64,000 bases of DNA, from positions 13,090-77,089 of the forward strand of contig JBEKSA010000017.1 of assembly GCA_049517515.1 (NCBI GenBank), given 5' to 3'. Under the pieces are notes generated by a model. The model was not told where the DNA came from. It was given only the letters and a program-made list of their open reading frames with translations, and searched no databases. The stretch comes from Terracidiphilus sp. Lineage in GTDB: Bacteria > Acidobacteriota > Terriglobia > Terriglobales > Acidobacteriaceae. The position numbers and the translations under genes were made by a program. Below are positions 9,759 to 22,011 of this stretch, one piece after another. Each line of letters begins with the position of its first letter. Positions within the stretch are counted from its first letter, which is position 1.

Positions 9759-10886
9759 TTGAGCGGCGAGCACGAAAGGGTCCTTGTCCTGAACCCCGGA
9801 ACGACGTCGACGAAGTTCGGCGTTTATACGCGCGCGGGCGAAGAGATGGCGCGCAACATTCACCACGGAGACGAGGAAATCGAGAGGTTTCGCGGGAGGC
9901 CGATGCTGGACCGGCTGGAGTACCGCGCGGGGCGGATCGAGGCGGCGCTCAAAGAGGCAGGATACGGCGAGAGCGGGAGGGGCGCGGAGCCCTGGGCTGC
10001 GGTGGCCGGCCGGGGCGGACTGCTGCCGCCGATGGAGTGCGGGACGTATCTCGTGGACGACACGATGGTGGAGGAATTGCGGCGGGCGCGACGCGGAGAA
10101 CATGCGTCGAACCTGGGCGCGGTTCTGGCGTTGCGGTTTGCAGCGGCGGCCGGCGTGGAGGCGTACATTGTGGATCCGGTGACGGCGGATGAGTGGCAGG
10201 AGTGCGCAAGGCGCTCGGGCTCGCCGCTGGTGAAGCGGTCGTTCGTGGGGCACGCGCTGAACACCAAGGCTGTGGCTCGGCGCCATGCTCGCGGGCTGGG
10301 GCGCCGCTACGAGGAGATGCGGCTGATCGTGGTGCACATGGGCAGCGGAATTACGGTGACGGCACACCGCGGCGGGCGCATGATCGACAGCAATTCCATC
10401 GAGGAGGGCCCGTTCGGCCCGGACCGCACGGGATCGCTGCCGGTGCGCGAGCTGATCAAGCTGTGCTTTAGCGGATCGATGACGGAAAAGGAGCTCGACC
10501 GGCACGTCTTCGGCGACGGTGGACTGTTCGCGTATCTCGGAACGCGCGACCTCATGGAGGTGGAGCGGAGAATCGACGCGGGCGACGCGCAGGCGGCGGC
10601 GGTCTTCGAGGCCATGGTCTACCAGATCGGCAAGGAGACGGGCGCGATGGCCGCGGTGCTCGAAGGCAAAGTGGATGCGGTGTTGGTTACCGGCGGCATG
10701 GTGCACTCAGAGCGGCTAGTGGCGCGGCTGCGCGGGTCTGTGGAATGGATCGCGCCGGTGGCTGTGTATCCCGGGGAGGACGAGCTGCGGGCGCTGGCCG
10801 AGGGCGTGTTCCGCGTGCTGGACGGAGAGGGAGAAGCCAAGCGGATGAAAAGGCAGGGAGTAAGGAGTAGGACCAGGGATCAGTGA
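9759..10886 (+). CDS. buk: Butyrate kinase
   Basis: LNPGTTSTK, GRGGLL, GEHASNLG, HALNTKAVAR, VVHMGSGIT and YPGEDEL motifs. Confidence 0.93.
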   Translation: MSGEHERVLVLNPGTTSTKFGVYTRAGEEMARNIHHGDEEIERFRGRPMLDRLEYRAGRIEAALKEAGYGESGRGAEPWAAVAGRGGLLPPMECGTYLVDDTMVEELRRARRGEHASNLGAVLALRFAAAAGVEAYIVDPVTADEWQECARRSGSPLVKRSFVGHALNTKAVARRHARGLGRRYEEMRLIVVHMGSGITVTAHRGGRMIDSNSIEEGPFGPDRTGSLPVRELIKLCFSGSMTEKELDRHVFGDGGLFAYLGTRDLMEVERRIDAGDAQAAAVFEAMVYQIGKETGAMAAVLEGKVDAVLVTGGMVHSERLVARLRGSVEWIAPVAVYPGEDELRALAEGVFRVLDGEGEAKRMKRQGVRSRTRDQ

Positions 10887-11051: not shown

Positions 11052-11918
11052 TTGGCGGTTCTGGCGGTGCAGCAGATCCGGCGCATGCGGGGCGGAGCGC
11101 AGGGCCAGTTGATGCTGGGCGCAGACGGGCACGTCTACGTGGTGAAGTTCCAGAACAACCCGCAGCATACGCGGGTTCTGGCCAACGAGTTGATGGCCTC
11201 GCGGCTGGCGGCGGCGGCGGGGCTGACGGTGCCCGAGACTGATCTGGTGGAAGTTTCGAGCTGGCTGATTGAGAATACGCCGGAGCTGGAGATCGACATA
11301 GGGCGGACGCGGGCGCGCTGCCAGGCGGGACTGCAGTTCGGGTCGCGCTTCGCCGGAGGCATGATGCCGGGCCAGGTGGTTGACTACCTGACCGAAGAGC
11401 AACTGGCCGAGTTGAAGAACCCGGGCGAGTTCGCCGGCGTCCTGGCTCTGGATAAGTGGACCGGCAATGCCAACGGGCGGCAGGCGGTGTTCACGCGGCG
11501 GCAGCGGGAGAAGCGCTATAGGGCTGTTTTCATCGACTTCGGGTACTGCTTTCACGCCGGGGAGTGGCGCTTTGAAGATGCTCCGCTGCGCGGCGTGTAT
11601 TACCGCAACGATGTGTACCGGGAGATCACGGGATGGGAGTCGTTTGAGCCCTGGCTGACGAGACTTGAAACCATGGCGGCGGAGACGGTGTGGGAGGCGG
11701 CCAACGAGGTTCCCCCCGAATGGTATGGCGGCGATCAGAGTGAAATGGAAGCACTGGTCGAAAAGCTGCTCAAGCGGCGGAGCCGGATCCGGGAGCTGAT
11801 TGAGGCGTTTGGGAACTCGGATAGGAGGCCGTTTCCGAAATGGGGAGCGGGGGGGATGGAAAGTGAGAAGAGGTCTTGGAGAGCGGCCCGATGGGGAGAT
11901 ACGATGAGGGTGAATTGA
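11052..11918 (+). CDS. HipA-like (HipA_2/PI3-4-kinase-like fold) kinase
   Basis: RRMRGGAQ Gly loop, YVVKF, ANELMASRLA, LDKWTGNANGRQ and FIDFGYCF motifs. Confidence 0.85.
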   Translation: MAVLAVQQIRRMRGGAQGQLMLGADGHVYVVKFQNNPQHTRVLANELMASRLAAAAGLTVPETDLVEVSSWLIENTPELEIDIGRTRARCQAGLQFGSRFAGGMMPGQVVDYLTEEQLAELKNPGEFAGVLALDKWTGNANGRQAVFTRRQREKRYRAVFIDFGYCFHAGEWRFEDAPLRGVYYRNDVYREITGWESFEPWLTRLETMAAETVWEAANEVPPEWYGGDQSEMEALVEKLLKRRSRIRELIEAFGNSDRRPFPKWGAGGMESEKRSWRAARWGDTMRVN

Positions 11919-11927
11919 GGACAGAAC

Positions 11928-12112
11928 TTAGTTTTTAGCTGTTAACCTTTAGCTCTTTCCGTTCGCGCGAAGACGGCAGAGGCTTTAATGGTGGAGGACA
12001 ACGGCACGGAGTTTCGGACTGCATAGCCGGGGCTAAGAGCTAAAAGCTAAGGGCTAAGAGCCCGAGGCTGCCAGCTACGGGCTGCGGGCTATGAACTACG
12101 AACTGCGAACTT
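11928..12112. repeat. Inverted AGCT-core heptamer repeat blocks plus further heptamers
   Basis: ttagtttttagctgttaacctttagctcttt paired with gctaagagctaaaagctaagggctaagagc; then gctacgg/gctgcgg/gctatga/actacga/actgcga. Confidence 0.75.
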
Positions 12113-12121
12113 GAAGAAGCG

Positions 12122-12997
12122 ATGACGAGCCAAAGCCAGCGGCGTGGGTGCGAGTTTCAACTGCTTCGGTATGTGCCGGACGCAGTGCGGAACGAGTATG
12201 TGCACATCGGCGTGATCTTGCGCGAGTCCGCCACGGCGGACAACCCTGGAAGGGTTGAGGTGCGCTTCACGCGCGACTGGCGGCGGGTGAGGTGCCTCGA
12301 TCCCCACGCCGATACGGCGCTGCTCGAAGGGATGGAAGGCGAGCTGCGGCGGCAGCTCCAGGAGCGAACGGACCTGGAGGAAACAGACCTTGAGGCGGCG
12401 GGAGGGCGCCTGATGCGGATCCTCGAGGAATCGCTCTCGCTGAACGTGCAGATGACTGAGCCCAAGGCCTACCTGGCCGAAAGCGTTCCCGCGGGAATGG
12501 AAGAGCTGATGCGGATCTACGTCGAGCCCCCGCCGCGGGAGCGGAGCCCGAGGCTCAGCGGACGGGCGGCGATCCAGTCGCGCATGCGCTCGGAGTTCGA
12601 ACATGCCGGTGTGTGGGATCTTTTGAGAAAGAGAATCGCCGCCTCGGAGTACACGCGGCCGGGCGATCCGCTGCGGATCGACGTGGGCTACCGGCCCAAC
12701 GGGGTGGTGCGGATGTTCCAGGCGGTGAGCCTCGATCCGGGGCTGGAGACGGCCAAGGTGCTGGCCTTTTCGGCAGCCGCGCTCCGCGTCGGCGTAGAGC
12801 GAGTGGAGAAAGCCGAGCTTGAGTTGACGGCCGTGATCGAGCCAGCGGCGCGGGTGGGAGCGACCGAAGAGGAGCCGGAACGGCTGGAGCTCTACCGCTT
12901 CGGAGTGGAGACGATGGAAGAGCACCGGATTCGGGTGCTGACCACCTCCGACATGGGCCGCGTAGCCGAGACGGCGCGGCGCGAGCTGCACGTGTAA
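12122..12997 (+). CDS. DUF3037 domain protein (usual partner of HipA_2 kinases)
   Basis: CEFQLLRYVPDAVRNEYVHIGVIL N-terminal signature; C-terminal IDVGYRPNG restriction-endonuclease-like region. Confidence 0.85.
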   Translation: MTSQSQRRGCEFQLLRYVPDAVRNEYVHIGVILRESATADNPGRVEVRFTRDWRRVRCLDPHADTALLEGMEGELRRQLQERTDLEETDLEAAGGRLMRILEESLSLNVQMTEPKAYLAESVPAGMEELMRIYVEPPPRERSPRLSGRAAIQSRMRSEFEHAGVWDLLRKRIAASEYTRPGDPLRIDVGYRPNGVVRMFQAVSLDPGLETAKVLAFSAAALRVGVERVEKAELELTAVIEPAARVGATEEEPERLELYRFGVETMEEHRIRVLTTSDMGRVAETARRELHV

Positions 12998-13198
12998 AGA
13001 GCTGGAGCCCGAAAACTGGGGTGCGGCTCGCGATCCAGTCGAGACTCTAAGTCTATTTTTAAGAACGCGTAAGGGGATGGTCACTGGGCCCGAAAATATT
13101 TTTTCTGAAGTTTGCCGATAATTTCCGGGCTTCGCGGTAGGATCAATCCGGTTGATGGATTTCAGGGGTATCGCGGCCGTTGCCGGGAGCGATTGAGT

Positions 13199-13231
13199 CA
13201 GGATTGGCTCAGGATTTGCTCCGGACTTGCT
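13199..13231 (+). promoter_or_regulatory. Three tandem 11-bp direct repeats upstream of the portal gene
   Basis: CAGGATTGGCT CAGGATTTGCT CCGGACTTGCT seen directly; regulatory role inferred. Confidence 0.5.
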
Positions 13232-13265
13232 CCAGGCGGACGGCTGACGAAACCCTGATCCCTCG

Positions 13266-13302
13266 AAAAAGGCATGGCCATGGGCCGTGCCTTTTTGTTT
13301 TT
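13266..13302 (+). terminator. Intrinsic terminator immediately upstream of the portal RBS
   Basis: Stem GGCATGGCC/GGCCGTGCC (one G-U pair), 3-nt loop, then TTTTTGTTTTT. Confidence 0.85.
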
Positions 13303-13310
13303 GAAGGAAG

Positions 13311-14612
13311 GTGCGCGTGAAGGTAGGCGAGCAATTACGGGAGATGTGGCGGCAGGCCCGCCGCGGCAGGCAGGCCGGGAATGGTGAGCGGTCCCGGCAG
13401 GTGGACCTCGATGCGGAGGTGGGGGCGGAGGCGGAGCGGAAGACGCTTGCGCTTCCCGCGATCCTGAGCCCGGTGCAATTTCCGGGCAAGCATCTGCCCA
13501 AGCCGACGCCGATGAACCTGCGCCGGTTTGCGGAGACACCGGTGGTGCGGCGGGCGATCAACGTGATCAAGGACCGCATCGCGGCGATGGACTGGCAGAT
13601 TCGGGTGCGACGCGGCGTGCAGCCCAACGACGTGGCGTTTGCGGCGCGCAAGCTGCGGGCGCTACGGTGCGCGCTGGAGGAGCCGAATCCGTCCGACAGC
13701 TTCCGCACCTTGGTGGAGCAGGTGATCGAAGATGCGCTGACCGGCGGCTTTGGAGCCATCGAGATGGAGCCGACGGGCGACCCGGAGCGGCCGGCGATGC
13801 TGTGGCCGGTGGATGGGGCCTCGATCCGCATCAACGCCAGGTGGGACGGCGGCGAGGATACGCCGCGCTACGCGCAGGCCATGCCGGGACAACTGGAGTC
13901 GGGCGCCGTGGAGCTGCTCGACCGGCAGTTGATGTACATCCGGATGAACCCGCGCAGCTTTACTCCCTTCGGGCTGGGGCCGCTGGAAGTGGCCTTTGAG
14001 ACGGTGAACCAGTTCCTGAGCGCGCACCGCTTTGCCGGCAAGCTGGCGGCGAACTCGGTGGCGCAGTATGCACTCTGGCTGAACGAAGCCACGCCCGCGC
14101 AGCACGACCGGCTAATCCGCTGGTGGCAGGGCGAGATCGAAGGCACGGGGCGCGTGCCGCTGATCTCGACCGAGCAGAAGCCGGAGGTGCTGCGCTTCGC
14201 GCAGGGAACGGACGCGGACCTGAGGCTGGCATGGCAGGAGTTCCTGATCCGGATGGTGGCCAACGCCTTCGGGCTGCCGCCGCTGATGCTGGGTCTGGAG
14301 GCGGACGTGAACCAGTCGACGGCCTCGGAGATGGCCGACGAGGCCTTCCGCGGCGCGATCTCGCCGCTGGCCATGCTGGTGGCCGGGCACATCACGCGCG
14401 ATCTGTTCGCCAAGTGCATCGGCTGGCGGGAGTTTGAGTTTGTCTTCAACGAGCTGAGCGCGCGGGACGAGGAGACAGAGCTGCAGGTGCAAGTGCAACT
14501 GCTGCAGGCCGGCGTGCTCACGATCGACGAGGTACGGGCGATGCGGGGACTGGCTCCGCTGGGGCAGACTCCGGAGGCGTTGCTGTCGGGCGAAGCGGAA
14601 AACAGAGACTAA
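13311..14612 (+). CDS. Phage portal protein (HK97-like); start may be GTG at 13317
   Basis: TPVVRRAINVIKDRIAAMDW, DALTGGFG, LWPVDG, FGLGPLE, IRMVANAFGLPPLML and GVLTIDEVRAMRGL motifs. Confidence 0.92.
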   Translation: MRVKVGEQLREMWRQARRGRQAGNGERSRQVDLDAEVGAEAERKTLALPAILSPVQFPGKHLPKPTPMNLRRFAETPVVRRAINVIKDRIAAMDWQIRVRRGVQPNDVAFAARKLRALRCALEEPNPSDSFRTLVEQVIEDALTGGFGAIEMEPTGDPERPAMLWPVDGASIRINARWDGGEDTPRYAQAMPGQLESGAVELLDRQLMYIRMNPRSFTPFGLGPLEVAFETVNQFLSAHRFAGKLAANSVAQYALWLNEATPAQHDRLIRWWQGEIEGTGRVPLISTEQKPEVLRFAQGTDADLRLAWQEFLIRMVANAFGLPPLMLGLEADVNQSTASEMADEAFRGAISPLAMLVAGHITRDLFAKCIGWREFEFVFNELSARDEETELQVQVQLLQAGVLTIDEVRAMRGLAPLGQTPEALLSGEAENRD

Positions 14613-14682
14613 GGGACTTAGGGACATAGGGGCTAAGAAACGCAGGGAGCGGGGACCGAGTCCCTGGCGGAGCGGAGCGAGC

Positions 14683-15183
14683 ATGCGATTGGAAGCGATG
14701 GCGGTAAAGATTCCTCATGTGGACAAGCATCCCAACCGGGTGCCATTTGAGGGCGTGTTGACGGTAGTGAACGCGGCCAGCGATCGAGCGCCGGCCGGAG
14801 CGCGCGGGCACCGCGTGATGCTGACGCGCGAGGCGGCGGAGAAGGCGCTGCCTTCGCTGCTGGGCATGGCTGTGGATTACAGACCCGGATGGGACGGCCA
14901 CGATGCGCGTCGCAAGATCGGCCTGCTGACCGAGGCCGATGTGATCGGGCCGCGGCTGGTGGTGCGAGGGTACCTCTACGCGCGCGATTTTCCCGATGTG
15001 GCGCAGGCGATCACGGCGCACGCTCTCGAAACGCTGGGCATGAGCTACGAACTGGCCGATGCGCGCGTGGAGGATATGCGGGCGGAGATCTGGAAGCTGA
15101 CGCGGGTGACCTTTACCGGAGCGGCGATTCTGCTGCGGGACAAGGCAGCTTACCGGGCGACAAGCTTCAGGATGGCGAGTTAG
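14683..15183 (+). CDS. Prohead (maturation) protease-like protein
   Basis: Position after the portal; His (WDGHD) and Ser (LGMSYE) in HK97/assemblin-type spacing; C-terminal FTGAAIL...AY. Confidence 0.65.
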   Translation: MRLEAMAVKIPHVDKHPNRVPFEGVLTVVNAASDRAPAGARGHRVMLTREAAEKALPSLLGMAVDYRPGWDGHDARRKIGLLTEADVIGPRLVVRGYLYARDFPDVAQAITAHALETLGMSYELADARVEDMRAEIWKLTRVTFTGAAILLRDKAAYRATSFRMAS

Positions 15184-15190
15184 CGAAAGA

Positions 15191-15290
15191 CAGCGGAGTT
15201 AGCGGAGCCAGCGGAGTTGGCGGAGTTAGCCAAGGGGAAAAGCCAGACGGCCAACAAGTAAGTTAGCGAGTTAGTCAATCAGTGAGTAAG
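15191..15290. repeat. 9-mer x4 (YAGCGGAGT-like) and 8-mer tandem repeats
   Basis: CAGCGGAGT TAGCGGAGC CAGCGGAGT TGGCGGAGT, then aagtaagt tagcgagt tagtcaat cagtgagt. Confidence 0.75.
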
Positions 15291-15300
15291 AGAGCGAACA

Positions 15301-15331
15301 AAGAGGCTCCGGGAACGGAGCCTTTTTGTTT
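15301..15331 (+). terminator. Intrinsic terminator between the protease and scaffold genes
   Basis: GGCTCCG/CGGAGCC stem, GGAA tetraloop, then TTTTTGTTT. Confidence 0.85.
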
Positions 15332-15381
15332 CTCAGTGAACCGCCGCAGTGAGCAATTCGCAAAAACAGGAAAGGAAAAAC

Positions 15382-15780
15382 ATGGAACAAGGAGAAGAGA
15401 ACATCGTGGAGCGGCTGGAAGCCGCAACCACCGCGCTGGAAAAGACGCTCAGTTGGCTGGAACAACGGCAGGGTGAGCTTTCCGGCGAGGTGGAGAGGAT
15501 CTCGGCGACTGTGGAACAAAGCCGCCGCGAAACCGAACTGGCGGAGAAGCTTGCCGCCGTGGAGCGCGAGTTGGCCGAGGTGAAAGCGGCGTCGACGCAG
15601 AACGCACTGAACCCGCTGCGCCGCACCATGCCCGCAGCAACGGCCGAGATGCTGGCCAAGCATGGCATCGGCGATGGGCCGGTGGATGTGCGCTCGCTGG
15701 ATGCGGCGTTGTCCGGACTGAGCCTGGAGCAGCGCATTGCAGTCAAAACGCAACTGCTGCGGGCCGGCGCAATCTCGTAA
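15382..15780 (+). CDS. Capsid scaffold-like coiled-coil protein
   Basis: GGAAAGGA RBS; Glu-rich heptad helix; position between protease and capsid. Confidence 0.6.
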   Translation: MEQGEENIVERLEAATTALEKTLSWLEQRQGELSGEVERISATVEQSRRETELAEKLAAVERELAEVKAASTQNALNPLRRTMPAATAEMLAKHGIGDGPVDVRSLDAALSGLSLEQRIAVKTQLLRAGAIS

Positions 15781-15784
15781 AGGC

Positions 15785-15965
15785 AGCTTCTAGCTTTTAG
15801 CTATTAGCTCTTAGCTACGAGCTTGTTGAGCGCACAGGGTAGCCGACAGACGAAACGCGATGGAAGTGAAAGATCGCGGACCGCGCGCCGGCGAATGATC
15901 AATCATCAACGCCAGATCAGGCACGAACAAGCTGGCAGCTAGGAGCTAGAAGCTAGCAGCTAAGC
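15785..15965. repeat. Inverted AGCTNNN heptamer blocks enclosing about 100 nt
   Basis: Six AGCT units at 15785-15827 are in register with the reverse complement of five AGCT units at 15926-15965. Confidence 0.85.
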
Positions 15966-15995
15966 ACGGCCCCATGGAGGGGGTGGAGAGAATCT

Positions 15996-16964
15996 ATGAA
16001 CGCAACCTTTGCAGATATTCATGCGGCAGCGGACTACATCGGGCCGGGCGCTATCGAAGTTCCGCTGTACCAGACGGAGATCTTCGACATTTGCCGGCGG
16101 TCAAGTTCATTTGGACAGCGCATCAGGCAGGTTCCGGCGACCGGGCATCCGTCGCGTTTCTTTGAGGAGACGGCGATTCCCAATCCGGGGACAGCGGGCT
16201 TCGTGAATCCGCGCAGCATCAATCCCACGGTGGTGAGCCCGACGCGCATTGAGCTGAGCGTGCCGCTGAAAGCGGTTGTGGCACAGATCAACTACAACCT
16301 CTTCGACATCGAGCTGGGCGACCAGCAGAAGCAGTTCGCCTATCTGCAGGCCAAGGATCTTGTGGATACGGTGAGCGGCGTGATGGTGGCGCACGACGTG
16401 GCGCTGTGGAACGGCAACGACACCAGCCTGAGCGCGCCTACGACCACGCAGTACATGGGCTGCGCGGCGCAGATCGCGGCCGGAGGCAACTCGGTGACCG
16501 TGACCACCTCGATGAAGATTGTGGACACGATCAAGACCACGGTGGCGCAGATGGTGGCCAACAACGGCTACCATGTGCGTCCCACGGCGGTCTATGCCAA
16601 CCCGGTGCTGCTGGACCTGATCGACCAGGAGATGAAATCCGAGTACAACGTGGTGCTGAACACCGACCAGATCACCGGCGGCTTCCGCGTGAAGATGCTT
16701 TCGACGCAGGCCGGCGACCTGCCGTTGATTCCGGATTGGAGCCTGAGTTACACGGGCACGCCGGGAAGCGGCAATGCCGTGCTTCCGGCCTACATCGTGA
16801 CTGAGGATCTGATCGAGTATCACTGGCTGGGCGATCCCACTCCGCGCGTCTTCCAGCTCGGCTTGCCGAACTCGCTGACCCACCAGTATGTGGCAGTCAA
16901 GTTCGGCGCTCCGGTGGTGAAGGGCGCAAACTTCGCCCACTATCAGGTGCTGGTCGACCGGTAG
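15996..16964 (+). CDS. Major capsid protein (HK97-fold-like)
   Basis: 322 aa after the scaffold; ends in a typical MCP-like pattern (V.FG..VV.G..F.H..V); followed by neck genes. Confidence 0.72.
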   Translation: MNATFADIHAAADYIGPGAIEVPLYQTEIFDICRRSSSFGQRIRQVPATGHPSRFFEETAIPNPGTAGFVNPRSINPTVVSPTRIELSVPLKAVVAQINYNLFDIELGDQQKQFAYLQAKDLVDTVSGVMVAHDVALWNGNDTSLSAPTTTQYMGCAAQIAAGGNSVTVTTSMKIVDTIKTTVAQMVANNGYHVRPTAVYANPVLLDLIDQEMKSEYNVVLNTDQITGGFRVKMLSTQAGDLPLIPDWSLSYTGTPGSGNAVLPAYIVTEDLIEYHWLGDPTPRVFQLGLPNSLTHQYVAVKFGAPVVKGANFAHYQVLVDR

Positions 16965-16967
16965 GGA

Positions 16968-17100
16968 AAACAGTTCATGGTTAGCAGTTCATGGTTTGCA
17001 GCTCACGGCCGCCGGAAAGAACACCGGCAGCCGTGAGGCGCGGGCTGAGGACTGCGAACCAGGAACTCTGACTCAAGAATTCTGAACCAGGAACTGGAAA
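16968..17100. repeat. Degenerate inverted tandem repeats (CAGTTCATGGTT / GAACCAGGAACT)
   Basis: Seen directly in the capsid-adaptor spacer. Confidence 0.6.
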
Positions 17101-17114
17101 CGGAAGGATGCGCG

Positions 17115-17738
17115 ATGGCATATCTCGAGCCAGCGGATTACACGAACTATGGATTGCCGGCCGGGACCACGGCAGACTGGATCACGGCCGCGACGGCCCT
17201 GATCAACAGTTACTGCAGGCGGCCCGATCTGAATGTGATTCAGTATACGGAGCGCCTGCGCGTAACGGCTGGGGCGCAGACGGTGCGGCTGAGCTATCTG
17301 CCGCTGGCGCCGCTGGCGCCGGCGACGACGCCGATGGTGAGCCTCGAAGGACGGTACGCGAGGCCAAGACGCGGGGAGATTCCGCAGGAGCCGCTCATCG
17401 AGATCGCATGGGCGTTTGCGTTGCCCGGGCAATGGACGTCGATCGATGCCACGCTTGTGGACTTCGATCCCAACACCGGGGAGCTGACGCTGCCGTGGAA
17501 TGTTCTGGGGCTGCCGTTCAACGAAGTGCAAGCGACTTACACGGCGGGCCTAGCGACCATCGGCGACGACGTGAAGTCAGCGTGTGCGCAGATTGTGCGC
17601 AATGCGCAGGCAACGCCAGCGCTGAACGCGAGCATGAGCAGGATCGACACGATGCAAATCAAGTATTTCTCAAGTTCGCTGATCGACGAGACGGTGCAGG
17701 CGTGGCTGAATCCGTACGTTGCGAACAGGCTGGGGTGA
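17115..17738 (+). CDS. Head-tail adaptor (gp6/gp15-like)
   Basis: AATALINSYCRR N-helix, beta insertion, then VQATYTAGLATIGDDVKSACAQIV. Confidence 0.75.
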   Translation: MAYLEPADYTNYGLPAGTTADWITAATALINSYCRRPDLNVIQYTERLRVTAGAQTVRLSYLPLAPLAPATTPMVSLEGRYARPRRGEIPQEPLIEIAWAFALPGQWTSIDATLVDFDPNTGELTLPWNVLGLPFNEVQATYTAGLATIGDDVKSACAQIVRNAQATPALNASMSRIDTMQIKYFSSSLIDETVQAWLNPYVANRLG

Positions 17739-17741
17739 GCG

Positions 17742-18176
17742 ATGAGCGATACGGCGCCGCGTAACCCGCGGGGCGCGCCGCAGATGCTGGCCGACGCGCT
17801 GCTGCGCAGCGCATCGGGTACGACGGCCCTTCTGCGCGTGACAGGCACGAATACGGATACGAGCATGTCGGAGGTCGGCCTGGTAGCGACCACCTTCGCC
17901 GATGTTCCGGTAAGCCCGGTGCTGATGCGCAAGCTGCGGCCGCAATGGCAGGAAGGTGGCGAATCGAAGTGGGAGCTGCTGGTGTCGGCCACGAGTGTGG
18001 AGCAGCAGATCAACACGCTCGATTTGCCGTCGGCACAGTCTCTGTTCGCCATGACTTTGGCGGTTACCGTGGCCGGGCAAGACTATCTGATTGAGTCGAT
18101 CGCTTCCAATGAGGCGTTTGGCCAGGTGTATCTCTACCGGCTGCTTTTGCGCGAGGCGCGGCAGCAGGCGGTGTAA
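17742..18176 (+). CDS. Head closure/stopper-like protein
   Basis: Size (144 aa), beta-rich pattern and position after the adaptor; no diagnostic motif. Confidence 0.5.
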   Translation: MSDTAPRNPRGAPQMLADALLRSASGTTALLRVTGTNTDTSMSEVGLVATTFADVPVSPVLMRKLRPQWQEGGESKWELLVSATSVEQQINTLDLPSAQSLFAMTLAVTVAGQDYLIESIASNEAFGQVYLYRLLLREARQQAV

Positions 18177-18193
18177 CCGCGCGAGGGGCATCC

Positions 18194-18679
18194 ATGCAGA
18201 ATGCGAAAGATTCTTTTTATATGGCGTTGCGCACGCGGCTTACCGAGATCAATCCGCAGCGGACGATCCTGGTGCGGGGTACCGTAAGGCCGGGAATCCT
18301 GGTGGAGGAAGCAGAGGCTCCGTTCAGCCAGTTCCCTAGCGACGTGTTTGTGTTGCGCTGGCTGGGCCTGGCTGTTGACATGGACCTGGCATCAACGATG
18401 ACAGGGGAGCAATGCGAAATCGTCTACCAGACGTGCGGCACACAGAGCTTCGGCGGGCTGGATCGCGGCCGAGCTTTGAGCACGATGGACGAGGAATTAA
18501 TGGCGATGATTCAGCCTTTCTACACACCGAAGCTGAATTACGCCGCCACGCCGCCAGCCGCCATGCTGACGCAGGTTTTCTGGGATGAGCCGGTGTTCTC
18601 GCCCATCGTTACCCAGCGCGACCGGCTGAGCCGCAGCGCGACAGTGTTGGTTTACAGCTACCAGGAGCAGGGGGAGTAA
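18194..18679 (+). CDS. Tail terminator/completion-like protein
   Basis: N-terminal helix (KDSFYMALRTRL), 161 aa, immediately before the tube gene; called on synteny. Confidence 0.5.
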   Translation: MQNAKDSFYMALRTRLTEINPQRTILVRGTVRPGILVEEAEAPFSQFPSDVFVLRWLGLAVDMDLASTMTGEQCEIVYQTCGTQSFGGLDRGRALSTMDEELMAMIQPFYTPKLNYAATPPAAMLTQVFWDEPVFSPIVTQRDRLSRSATVLVYSYQEQGE

Positions 18680-19654
18680 ATGGCCGCAACTTGGTTTTCC
18701 GCTCCGGCGCCGGTGTCGCGACGGGTGCGGGCTTTCTTTGCGCCGGTGAATCGCGCGGCGCAGACGCCCGTTCTTTTCGATCCGTCGGAACAGGGCTGGT
18801 TTAGTCTTGATGCCCCACCGGCACCGTGGATCAGCCTAGGATGGGTGCAGGATTTTGTGCGCAAGACGGCGAGTAAGTCAGCGGCGCTGATGACCGGAAT
18901 TCCCGCAGCGCCCCTCGAACAGGTGCGCGAGACCCTCGAAGCGCAAGTAAGTCTTCAATTTCTAAGTTGGACGAAGCTGACGATGGGTCTGGCTACCGGC
19001 TCGCAACATATGAACATCCTTGCGCCGGCGATTGGCGCGGCTCCTGCAGCTGATGGAGCACAAGCATCGCCCGCAGTGACACCGCAGAGCGGTTCGACGA
19101 GCACGTCGATTCTGCTGGCGCTTACGGACGCGGCCAAATTCACACCCGGCGCGATCGTCGCTGTCGACGCGGATTACAACGGGCAGACCGGCTATGTGGG
19201 CACTCCGGTAGCCGGCGCGTACGTGCGCCAGGTGCTCACGGATGTGGACTACGTGCGGCGCGTAACGTTCAATGTCGCGCTTGTATCGCAAGTGACCGCG
19301 ACCGGGCTGAATCTGGCCGAGCCGTTGCCGGGCGGCGCCCCTGCAACGGGCGCCAAGGTGCAGGCAGTGACCGGATTTGTCGATCGAGAAGGCGGAAGCT
19401 TTTACCAGGAGTGGTCAGGGCTCTTTGTGATGGAAGGCAGCCAGGGAGAGAGAATCTTTTTCCACTATCCAAGACTGCAAGCTATGACCGGAGCGGAGGA
19501 GGCTGTTTCGCCGCTCAATCAAAAGAATCAAGGTGGACATTCGCGTGTACTACTCAAGGGGCAGTTTCTGGCATTGCCGGTGATGGACCCATTGGATGGA
19601 GAACGCGTGGTATGTTACCGGAGCTTTCTACCGGCGGCCAACGCGCTGGTATAA
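18680..19654 (+). CDS. Major tail tube-like protein with inserted domain
   Basis: WISLGWV...EAQVSLQFL..LTMGLATG and RIFFHYPRL...F.ALP.DP patterns of non-contractile tube proteins; called on synteny. Confidence 0.55.
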   Translation: MAATWFSAPAPVSRRVRAFFAPVNRAAQTPVLFDPSEQGWFSLDAPPAPWISLGWVQDFVRKTASKSAALMTGIPAAPLEQVRETLEAQVSLQFLSWTKLTMGLATGSQHMNILAPAIGAAPAADGAQASPAVTPQSGSTSTSILLALTDAAKFTPGAIVAVDADYNGQTGYVGTPVAGAYVRQVLTDVDYVRRVTFNVALVSQVTATGLNLAEPLPGGAPATGAKVQAVTGFVDREGGSFYQEWSGLFVMEGSQGERIFFHYPRLQAMTGAEEAVSPLNQKNQGGHSRVLLKGQFLALPVMDPLDGERVVCYRSFLPAANALV

Positions 19655-19694
19655 CACGCACTAGAGAATCCGAGTTACCAGACAGAGAGTTGCG

Positions 19695-22011
19695 ATGAAG
19701 ATACAAATCCAGAGGCAGGATTACACGGCTGCGTTCGACTCCGGTCGTCCATTAACCATCGAGCGCAAGCTGAATGCACCGTCGGTCTGCGAGTTATGGT
19801 TGAGCCTACCGGCCAATGGCAGTCTTGCGGCGCCGGCGCGCTTTCAATCTGTTTCGGTGACCGGGGATGACGGGACAACTTACTTCACGGGCTATATCAC
19901 TGCAAGTCCCTTGCCAGAGTATGCGGGAATTGGCCTTGAAGGGCCGCGCTACCGGCTAGCAATTCAGGCTGTGAGCGATGAGATTCTGCTGGACCAGGTG
20001 CTGATGCCGCCCAGCGCCGGATTGGCCGAAGAGGATGCGGGGACGTTGCTTGCTGCCCTTGTGGCTCACACTGGATCGACATCCCTTTCGGCGCGGACGT
20101 CTTCACTGAACACTCTTGTGGGGAACTTTACTCCGGAGCCGGGAGCAAATTGGAGCAAAAGCGCCGGAGAGGCCGCTGGCATGGCCCGGGCGGCATATCG
20201 CGCACAGAGCGGCGCAATCACGCTGTCCGCGGTACAGACAACCGTTCATCCCCTGAATGAGACCGATGGGAGCCTGAACCTGGGTAACCTGGCTCTGACA
20301 GCAAGCGTTAAGCGCGCGCTGGCCAACGATGTGACCGTTTGCGGCGAGAATGAGCCGGCAGCCTATGTTACGGAGTACTTCCTCGGCGACGGAGCAACAA
20401 CGCAGTTCAATCTGGCAGCCGACCCATACTTTCCCGCGACTTCAAAATCCACAATTATCAGCGAGCTCTTTAACGAGCCACAAATCAACGAGACGGTGTG
20501 GGAATTTTCCGAGGGAACGGGCTACCTTACGATCGGCCCCGGCGGCCTGGCGATGAACGGCGGCAACGGGATCGACGGGCAGACGTTGCTGACATGGATC
20601 GATCCCATCGAAATGGGTGGAACTCTGCTGTTTGAGGCGGTGGGAGTGAAACTGTCTCCGGGCAGCACGGGCATCGTGGCGGGATTCTTTACCAGTCTGC
20701 TGACAGCGGCGAATTGCACCGCAGGTTTTCAGGCCACGGCGCAACAAGGCACCGGAGCCGTGACGCTGCAGCCAGTCGTGGAGGGCACTCCCGCGGGAAT
20801 CACGTTTGCGTTGAATCCAGCCAACCAATACACTGTCCGTGTCCGCATACACTGTCCGGAGTGTAATCGCGCGCAAGCAATGTATTATTCCTTTGGAGAT
20901 CAGGGGCTCATCGGCGCCGGCGGTGAATGGGCCATCGCTTCTGGAAAGATCCAGATGGAGATACAAGAATTTGTCAACGGCGTCGGCGCAACTCCTGTCA
21001 CACTGTATGACGCGGCTGTTGCCTATCTTCCTGGCTCCTGCCTGGTGGTGCCGGCCAGCAGCATCAATTTAATCGGAACGATTCGCGCCGTAAGCCTGAC
21101 GAACTTAGGGTCAGGTTGGGTAGTAAGTACCCCGCCGGCTGGCGGAGCGTACACGCGAAGGGTAGGCACAACCGCCGAAGCCGCGGAGTGTCATCTGGAG
21201 CGCACCGGCAAGGTCACGTTCTACACCGGATGCACGCCGGTTGCAGGTGAACAGATTGCAGTGAGTTACCGCACGGTTGGGCGGGCCGTAGGCCGCGCGG
21301 TAAACTCCACCAGCCAGCAGGCGCTGGCACAAGCCGGCTCACCGACTGTGGCCGCCTGGATCGGCTCGGTCACTCGTCCCCCCGGCACGCTGCTCCGCGG
21401 ATTGCCGCAATGCCGCGCTGGTGATGGAGCAGGCTGCAGCCAGCGTGAGCGCGCTTTGGAGTGGAACGTACAAAGGGAACCGGACGAGCTTTTCAGCGGA
21501 TGTTTGGCCAGGCGACGCGCTGCTGCTTGACGCGCCTTCGACAAATCTAAATGCGGAAGTCGTAGTGCGCACAGTTAAAGTAACTTACAGCGCCAGTTAC
21601 CCGGACTTAGTGGCTTATGAGATCGCCTTTGCCAATGACTGGGCAGATGACTTAGCCATCAAGACAAGCGCCGCGGTGCCAGCGGACACTTGGTTGCCGG
21701 CTCCCATTGCCCCTACAGTACTGGCCAATCTTGCCTGTCTCACGGTGGCCGCGATGAACGGGAGCACGGTGACGGTGAATACGGGAGTGACACCGCCAAG
21801 CGGCGGCGGGTTCGAGATTCGGTTGCGCGATTTTGCTTTCATGCCCGGCGAGGATCCGACGCTGGTGATCCGCGGCTCGCAGCCGAATCTTACGTTTTCG
21901 CGCATTTCGGCGAGCGATCGGTTCTACATTCGGATGTTCGATGGTTCGACGCCACCAAATTACTCGGAATTTTCGACGGCGCTGTTCATCAATCTGCCGT
22001 TGAGTTCTTGA
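19695..22011 (+). CDS. Tail hub/tip-like protein, split by a +1 frameshift at the C6 run 21378-21383 (about 771 aa if restored)
   Basis: Hub-like N-terminus (TIERKLNAPS, YFTGYI, RLAIQAVS); frame 19695 runs into GC-biased nonsense after VTRP, while the +1 frame continues PARCSADCRNAALVMEQ into DVWPGDALLLD. Confidence 0.65.

Follow-up and report, generated by a model that had tools for sequence, protein, structure and literature searches.

A tape measure protein sets the length of the tail in long-tailed phages, tailocins and the known gene transfer agents (GTAs) and helps to open the way for DNA, and the question raised by the locus described here is what kind of tail, if any, is specified by a tube gene and a hub gene that lie side by side with no such ruler between them. 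The two genes close a cassette of phage-derived structural genes on contig JBEKSA010000017.1 of Terracidiphilus sp., of which a stretch of 64,000 nucleotides (nt; ~61% G+C) was analysed; this stretch is called the window, and positions are window coordinates unless another locus is named. Its close relatives are genomes of Terracidiphilus and of other Acidobacteriaceae that were assembled from samples of peat and wetland. On balance, and with modest confidence, the best explanation for positions 17742-22011 is that they are the tail end of a cassette for a ruler-less, short-tailed particle derived from a phage.

A tube gene directly followed by a hub gene

The tube gene, g324 (18680..19654, + strand), ends with the TAA at 19652-19654 and the hub gene begins on the same strand with the ATG at 19695. 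The 40 nt that separate them (19655..19694), read directly from the sequence, leave no room for a gene and hold no + strand open reading frame (ORF), whereas phage relatives carry ~7 kb at the equivalent site. A preliminary description of the window had placed the end of the tube gene at 19654 and the start of the hub gene at 19695 and had concluded that neither chaperones nor a tape measure would fit between them, which is what the 40-nt gap confirms.

Comparison of the g324 and hub sequences with Pfam, the PHROGs and the PDB sequences gave nothing useful and both products were assigned from predicted structures. The AlphaFold2 model of g324, for which 111 sequences down to 28% identity were available, had a predicted local distance difference test score (pLDDT) of 90.3 and a predicted template modelling score (pTM) of 0.85. 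In a Foldseek search of the PDB its 19 best matches were all tail-tube chains, with a probability of 1.00 for the top 13, and they included 9n71_A of Mystique, which had the lowest E value (5e-10), 6xgr of YSD1, 8vhx of Chi, 8rk3 of JBD30 and 8zdj of Douge. The predicted fold, that of tail tubes with their beta-sandwich, flanking helix and inter-ring hairpin, thus identifies g324 as a major tail (tube) protein of the siphophage type, into which an outer domain is inserted.

The hub was modelled on the intact orthologue of locus L001 (the loci compared are referred to by L numbers) in place of the window gene, which is split. This model had a pLDDT of 87.8 and a pTM of 0.86. Residues ~1-230 were predicted to form a domain like those of gp27, Mu gp44 and VgrG, a hub fold in which each chain has two tube-like domains, with a Foldseek probability of 1.00 and a root mean square deviation (rmsd) of 4-6 Å over ~230 columns; the PDB matches were 1wru, which is Mu gp44 (E 1e-7, rmsd 5 Å over 226 columns), 3cdd and 9ki1, and the N-terminal part also matched the MuSo2 43-kDa protein, the spikes of VgrG and of extracellular contractile injection systems, and the 80alpha Tal protein (6v8i_AE). 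Residues ~250-480 formed a jelly roll which in Foldseek resembled lectin and PL7 alginate-lyase folds, and the predicted viral structures in BFVD that matched the hub were tail and minor tail proteins. As judged from its model, the 771-aa product encoded after the tube gene is a hub of the gp27/gp44 type that carries a lectin-like domain, and this domain is probably carbohydrate-binding. The names tube and hub had been given to the products of the genes at 18680 and 19695 before any structure was predicted, and both names are upheld by the folds.

The juxtaposition of tube and hub was found throughout the comparison set, which consisted of 80 loci from different species (counts of gaps and lengths refer to the subsets given with them). 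The order of genes, from a HipA-like kinase gene at the head of the cassette to the host gene purE beyond its end, was invariant in 80/80 fetched loci, which share the same site beside purE, and nothing was inserted between tube and hub in any of them. The tube-hub gap measured 1-188 nt, with a median of 41, and was gene-free in 67/67 relatives. Deeply branching cassettes likewise had the tube followed directly by the hub, as in L095 (47% tube identity) and L099 (48% tube identity, 70% G+C). The junction upstream was as tight; the TAA of g161 in the window is followed directly by the ATG of g324, and this spacing of 0 nt recurred in 52/73 relatives, with a 1-nt overlap in 8 more.

Gene lengths also scarcely varied, g144 having 144 aa in 75/76 relatives, g161 having 161 aa in 72/75 and g324 having 324 aa in 75/79, while the hub was a single ORF of 769-773 aa in 70/75. 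The pairwise ratio of nonsynonymous to synonymous substitution rates (dN/dS) was 0.085-0.104, at a dS of ~1 or more, for the adaptor, g144, g161, g324 and the hub, the individual values including 0.085 for g144, 0.097 for g161 and 0.088 for g324. Homologues of g324 number >5,500 in a large protein collection, the best 120 of them being 307-324 aa long and 81-96% identical, and the family is encoded by 490 species-representative genomes; it is a narrow family, with 335 representatives among 1.84 billion proteins. The five neck and tail genes are held under strong purifying selection across hundreds of species. Because the order and site are fixed, the lengths near-invariant and dN/dS so low, the cassette is a functional, vertically inherited and chromosomally fixed gene set of the Acidobacteriaceae, derived from a phage. 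A decaying prophage remnant was rejected on the same grounds, namely a dN/dS of ~0.09, invariant gene lengths and the same site in 80 species.

Descent from phages with a tape measure

The most distant branch of the g324 family (~30% identity) was found on IMG/VR contigs of 50-128 kb (L084-L093), which represent an uncultured siphophage family with 46-57% G+C. The single IMG/VR match to the close family, L083/L097, was rejected as a phage and is the host cassette on a 17-kb contig. The phages have the same order as the cassette, portal-protease-capsid-adaptor...tube...hub, and identities between phage and cassette are ~50% for the capsid, ~30% for the tube and ~25% for the hub, with 26-29% for the adaptor orthologue (profile E 1e-20 to 1e-27).

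In the phages the tube-hub interval of ~7 kb holds a gene of 217-268 aa and a gene of ~110 aa, both in chaperone position, and a giant ORF of 1390-2436 aa. The giant ORFs are regarded as tape measures because they are mutually homologous, are rich in A/Q/L/G and, in two cases (L089 and L093), match tape-measure PHROGs (phrog_8462, E 1e-22; phrog_1533, E 4e-4); Pfam and the PHROGs gave no match for six of the eight tape measures or for most of the phage neck and tail genes. To our knowledge tape measures of 1390-2436 aa are among the longest known, and by the usual rule of ~0.15 nm of tail length per ruler residue they imply tails of roughly 200-360 nm. In the phages the tube gene immediately precedes the chaperone-position genes and the tape measure, as expected of a tube gene. 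The chaperone label given to phage families F4 and F6 is a putative one, taken from their position and from one 244-aa gene with a weak match to a tail-assembly-chaperone PHROG (E 0.015).

The phage hub ORF begins 0-80 nt after the tape measure, with the exception of L086, where a 278-aa DUF559 or restriction-endonuclease-like ORF (L086:17330-18166), probably a mobile endonuclease, lies between the two. There is otherwise no gene between ruler and hub in the phages, just as there is none between tube and hub in the cassette, and since the phage hub directly follows the ruler the lack of a separate distal-tail gene is ancestral to the phage family. The preliminary description was right that no such gene lies between tube and hub, and this is no peculiarity of the cassette.

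Between adaptor and tube the phages carry four further conserved genes, and it was by comparison with phage neck genes that the two small cassette proteins could be placed. Alone, g144 and g161 had no Pfam, PHROG or PDB sequence match, and their profiles found nothing among PDB sequences and Pfam at E <= 1. Profile-profile comparison with hhalign related g161 (18194..18679, + strand) to phage family F2 with a probability of 96.6% (E 4.8e-10, 149 columns) and g144 (17742..18176, + strand) to phage family F5 with a probability of 89% (E 2e-6, 129 columns). g144 is orthologous to the gene that comes next after the adaptor in the phages, and g161 to the one that immediately precedes the tube there. 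From gene order, and from orthology to phage genes which are themselves unannotated, we infer that g144 would occupy the head-closure position and g161, a neck or tail-end protein, the tail-terminator position. The names stopper and terminator proposed in the preliminary description for the products of the genes at 17742 and 18194 have this same basis.

What separates cassette from phage is a set of missing genes. The cassette has no counterparts of the F4 and F6 chaperone-position genes, of the ruler or of the four genes of the adaptor-tube interval, and tblastn searches for the eight phage rulers and for the other lost families (E <= 0.01) found nothing in the 64-kb window and nothing in the 80 loci of up to 21 kb. 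No sheath gene was found either, the five genes after the capsid being the phrog_442 adaptor, the two small genes (144 and 161 aa), the tube and the hub, and a contractile system was rejected on this ground and because the tube matches non-contractile siphophage types. The absence of tape measure, chaperones and sheath noted at the outset therefore extends from the locus to the window and to the 80 orthologous loci.

It had also been suggested that a tape measure at this place in relatives would overturn the idea of a minimal tail. Host cassettes never carry one and free phage relatives do, and the phage tape measure makes its absence from the cassette a derived loss, so that the idea is not refuted. 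In a maximum-likelihood tree of the tube the ruler-bearing phages were split from all cassettes with 100/100 support, and a single loss suffices to explain this split. The cassette descends from a long-tailed siphophage family, and the ruler module was apparently lost once, early in the cassette lineage.

One locus, L094, is rearranged. Its tube gene is followed not by a hub but by a gene for a T/G/A/S-rich protein of 1726 aa (L094:6476-11656) with a signal peptide and a GDSL-like C-terminus, after which come TerL, kinase, DUF3037 and portal genes, with no portal upstream of the protease. The 1726-aa ORF was considered as a ruler or a hub and rejected as either, being a secreted T/G/S-rich protein.

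Tail length and the rival explanations

Evidence on the number of tube rings comes from gene fusions. In L099 (L099:2097-3554, 485 aa) and L100 (L100:2096-3466, 456 aa) g161 and the tube are fused in one ORF, the two fusions being only 34% identical to each other, and in L101 (L101:3909-5228) it is g144 that is fused to the tube, in a locus without g161. Each particle has one ring of a neck protein, so tube subunits joined to it covalently in a 1:1 ratio would suit a single tube ring and not a tube of many, and the fusions favour a single ring and a stub tail. The abutting genes for g161 and g324 are compatible with coupled, equimolar translation.

If this is correct, the genes would build a ruler-less short tail on the portal as a stack in which rings of the adaptor, of g144 and of g161 are followed by what is probably one tube hexamer and then by a hub trimer in direct contact with the tube, in the way that VgrG sits on Hcp. 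The number of tube subunits would be fixed by their 1:1 supply with the neck protein and not by a ruler, and the lectin-like domain of the hub would bind a surface glycan. In its fullest form, which is put forward tentatively as possible rather than probable, the proposal is of a host-owned particle with a single tube ring on a hub and with no ruler, chaperones or distal tail protein, whose ring number is set by 1:1 supply of, or fusion to, a neck protein, and which is a living intermediate in which a podovirus-like short tail arose from a tail of >200 nm by deletion of one module. The neck-tube fusions lend new, if indirect, support to the stub tail envisaged in the preliminary description.

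Other features of the cassette bear on how this proposal is to be weighed. Every real gene in 11052-22011 lies on the + strand, and the labels in order are HipA-like kinase, DUF3037, portal, protease, scaffold, capsid, adaptor, g144, g161, tube and hub, after which the cassette abuts the host genes purE and purK. The portal (PF04860, E 4e-53) is encoded between the DUF3037 gene and a gene for a 166-aa protein, which directly follows it; a coiled-coil protein of 143 aa comes between the 166-aa and 322-aa genes. The 322-aa capsid-position protein (15996-16964) has no Pfam or PHROG match of its own and is placed by its position and by ~50% identity to the gene found there in the phages; its gene is the most conserved of the cassette (84-99% identity across species). 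The 207-aa adaptor (17115..17738; phrog_442 'head-tail adaptor', E 4.7e-14) is the last head or neck gene before the tail part. Zero-mismatch contigs from a wetland metatranscriptome (X25), at a depth of 2-4, cover 17550-17699, 19374-19524, 21291-21481 and 21697-21847 and so fall on the adaptor, tube and hub genes, which suggests low-level in situ transcription of all three, with DNA carry-over possible.

The hub gene of the window is split. ORFs 19695-21530 and 21421-22011 are two pieces of what is one gene, given the single ORF found in most relatives; the first part (19695..21382, + strand) loses its frame at a run of six C (C6, 21377-21382) and the C-terminal part (21383..22011, + strand, including the 196-aa ORF 21421-22011) continues in the +1 frame relative to it. 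The cause is one extra C in the run, and the pieces are 89-94% identical to the intact L001 orthologue, the C-terminal part being 94% identical. The C6 run of the window recurred in five independent metagenome assemblies from peat or wetland, which led to the rejection of an assembly error, while three wetland assemblies and one metatranscriptome contig had five C and an intact hub. The intact wetland assemblies showed only 2 other differences from the window in 5.8 kb (19725 A>G and 22936 T>A). The split is real, and either the frameshift arose very recently or the tail tip is phase-variable; the tip in this strain may be truncated or switched off.

The presence of a terminase gene varies. 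In 18/51 informative host loci and in deep branches the HipA-like kinase gene is immediately preceded by a TerL-like gene, the loci with such a gene being L012, L021, L038, L039, L041, L044, L050, L056-L059, L062, L066-L068, L072, L076, L079, L083, L094, L095, L096 and L098. That of L094 (L094:11658-13319, 553 aa) has a Terminase_6C match (E 5e-4) that falls short of the Pfam cut-off, and a Walker A-like motif can be picked out in it by eye. In the window and its nearest relatives the place of the TerL-like gene is taken by one for butyrate kinase (9759-10886 in the window). Because of this distribution the ancestral cassette, as far as its gene content tells, probably packaged DNA.

Several considerations weigh against a short, single-ringed tail. 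The particle is known here from genes alone, and it is from these that we infer ring number and order of assembly. Each of the three fusions comes from a single contig in a single sample and belongs to a diverged cassette, not to that of the window, and the putative terminator g161 takes its label from gene order and orthology rather than from a fold. The absence of the ruler covers the window and the loci, and a ruler elsewhere in the genome is possible; so is a tube of variable length, given that some siphophage tube proteins can polymerise by themselves with no ruler. The hub gene is frameshifted in this strain, the RNA evidence consists of low-depth contigs that may include DNA, and there is no terminase in the 64-kb window, though 18 relatives have one beside the cassette, so that the particle of this clade may or may not package DNA.

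Among the rival explanations, a normal long tail whose tape measure and chaperones are supplied in trans, from elsewhere in the genome or by an infecting phage of the L084 type, is unlikely and yet has a number of points in its favour. The ruler search was confined to the window and the 80 loci, agents of the type of the Rhodobacter capsulatus GTA (RcGTA) keep some of their structural genes at separate loci, and the TerL-like gene has also left the locus in this clade, so that parts can evidently be unlinked. In similar environments, moreover, there are related phages whose tube and hub genes look compatible. The tblastn searches with phage tape measures and the other lost families were, however, negative throughout, the chaperone-position genes have gone too, and the loss is an old one that has persisted in every lineage seen. 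With their phage counterparts the tube and hub share only 23-31% identity, which makes borrowing doubtful, and the 1:1 stoichiometry of the neck-tube fusions misfits a tube of dozens of rings.

A second possibility, likewise improbable, is that there is no tail for DNA delivery at all, the stack serving instead to plug the portal of a capsid used by the host, or the proteins acting as decoys that hinder the assembly of related phages. Such phages exist, the window lacks a terminase, no ejection or channel-forming proteins replace the ruler in its role of crossing the envelope, and a defence-like pair, the HipA-like kinase and DUF3037, is fixed at the head of the cassette. The TerL-like gene beside the cassette in 18/51 loci argues, on the other hand, for DNA packaging, at least ancestrally, and the hub keeps the lectin-like and C-terminal domains typical of receptor-binding tips, neither of which a plug would need.

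The least likely of the three is a tube that polymerises on the hub with no ruler, to give tails of variable length or polytubes capped stochastically by g161: the tube fold is complete, with no large deletion relative to the phage orthologues, recombinant siphophage tube proteins have been reported to self-assemble in the absence of a ruler, and tube and g161 are separate proteins in the window cassette, but the abutting and probably translationally coupled genes, with the fusions elsewhere, point to equimolar amounts, L101 has its tube fused to a neck protein and no g161, and such irregular products are hard to square with a dN/dS of ~0.09 for each of the components in hundreds of species.

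Comparison with known systems

The proteins of the module belong to known families, the siphophage tube and the gp27-type hub, and it is their combination that departs from described tails. The predicted tube fold of g324 is that of the YSD1, Chi and Mystique siphophage tails (6xgr, 8vhx and 9n71). The uncultured phages L084-L093 have orthologous portal, protease, capsid, adaptor, tube and hub genes in the same adaptor...tube...hub order, but they carry chaperone-position genes, a ruler and four neck genes, whereas the cassette has none of these and is chromosomally fixed beside purE. With no ruler or chaperones at the locus the module is not that of a complete siphovirus tail, and lacking a sheath it is not a contractile one. 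No description of the cassette, or of a conserved ruler-less tail of tube and hub, was found in the literature. If the reading of a short ruler-less tail is true, a conserved tube-plus-hub tail of this kind is a tail design not described before, and with ruler-bearing phage relatives at hand the setting of ring number in the absence of a ruler is directly testable. A stub tail with a lectin-like tip and no channel-forming ruler would limit the ways in which DNA or other cargo could enter a recipient cell, and this bears on the role of a widespread particle of the Acidobacteriaceae, the hosts being abundant soil bacteria.

The cassette is chromosomal, vertically inherited, under purifying selection and organised as a head-to-tail structural cluster, all of which are features of GTAs. 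Like RcGTA it is host-owned, with head, neck and tail genes in that order and with a tube and a hub, and in neither are integrase or replication genes in view. The main RcGTA cluster has a terminase at its head and retains the tape measure, together with a distal tail protein and the megatron (PMC7296036), whereas the cassette has no tape measure, no separate distal-tail gene and, in this clade, no adjoining terminase; the likeness seen is one of gene content and organisation. The nearest published parallel is provided by reduced GTA clusters in endosymbionts of the Rickettsiales and Holosporaceae, where tail parts, the tube among them, are missing or undetected and the tail genes show relaxed selection, with a dN/dS of 0.2-0.9 (George et al. 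2022, PMC9254644). As in those clusters, head and neck genes are under purifying selection and tail components are missing, but the cassette keeps its tube and hub, at a dN/dS of ~0.09, and has lost the ruler module, and it belongs to another phylum and derives from another ancestral phage.

A tube-fold hexamer on a gp27-like trimeric hub with no tape measure is also seen in the type VI secretion system, where Hcp sits on VgrG (8gra). That system has a sheath, a baseplate, a membrane complex and a long tube and has neither capsid nor portal, and the likeness is architectural only. The tails of podoviruses such as P22, T7 and phi29 are short, have no ruler and are built ring by ring on the portal, and the equivalent proposed for the cassette is one that we deduce from its genes. 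We know of no podovirus nozzle or knob protein that is of the siphophage tube type, and unlike the parts of podovirus tails those of the cassette are plainly derived from a siphophage.

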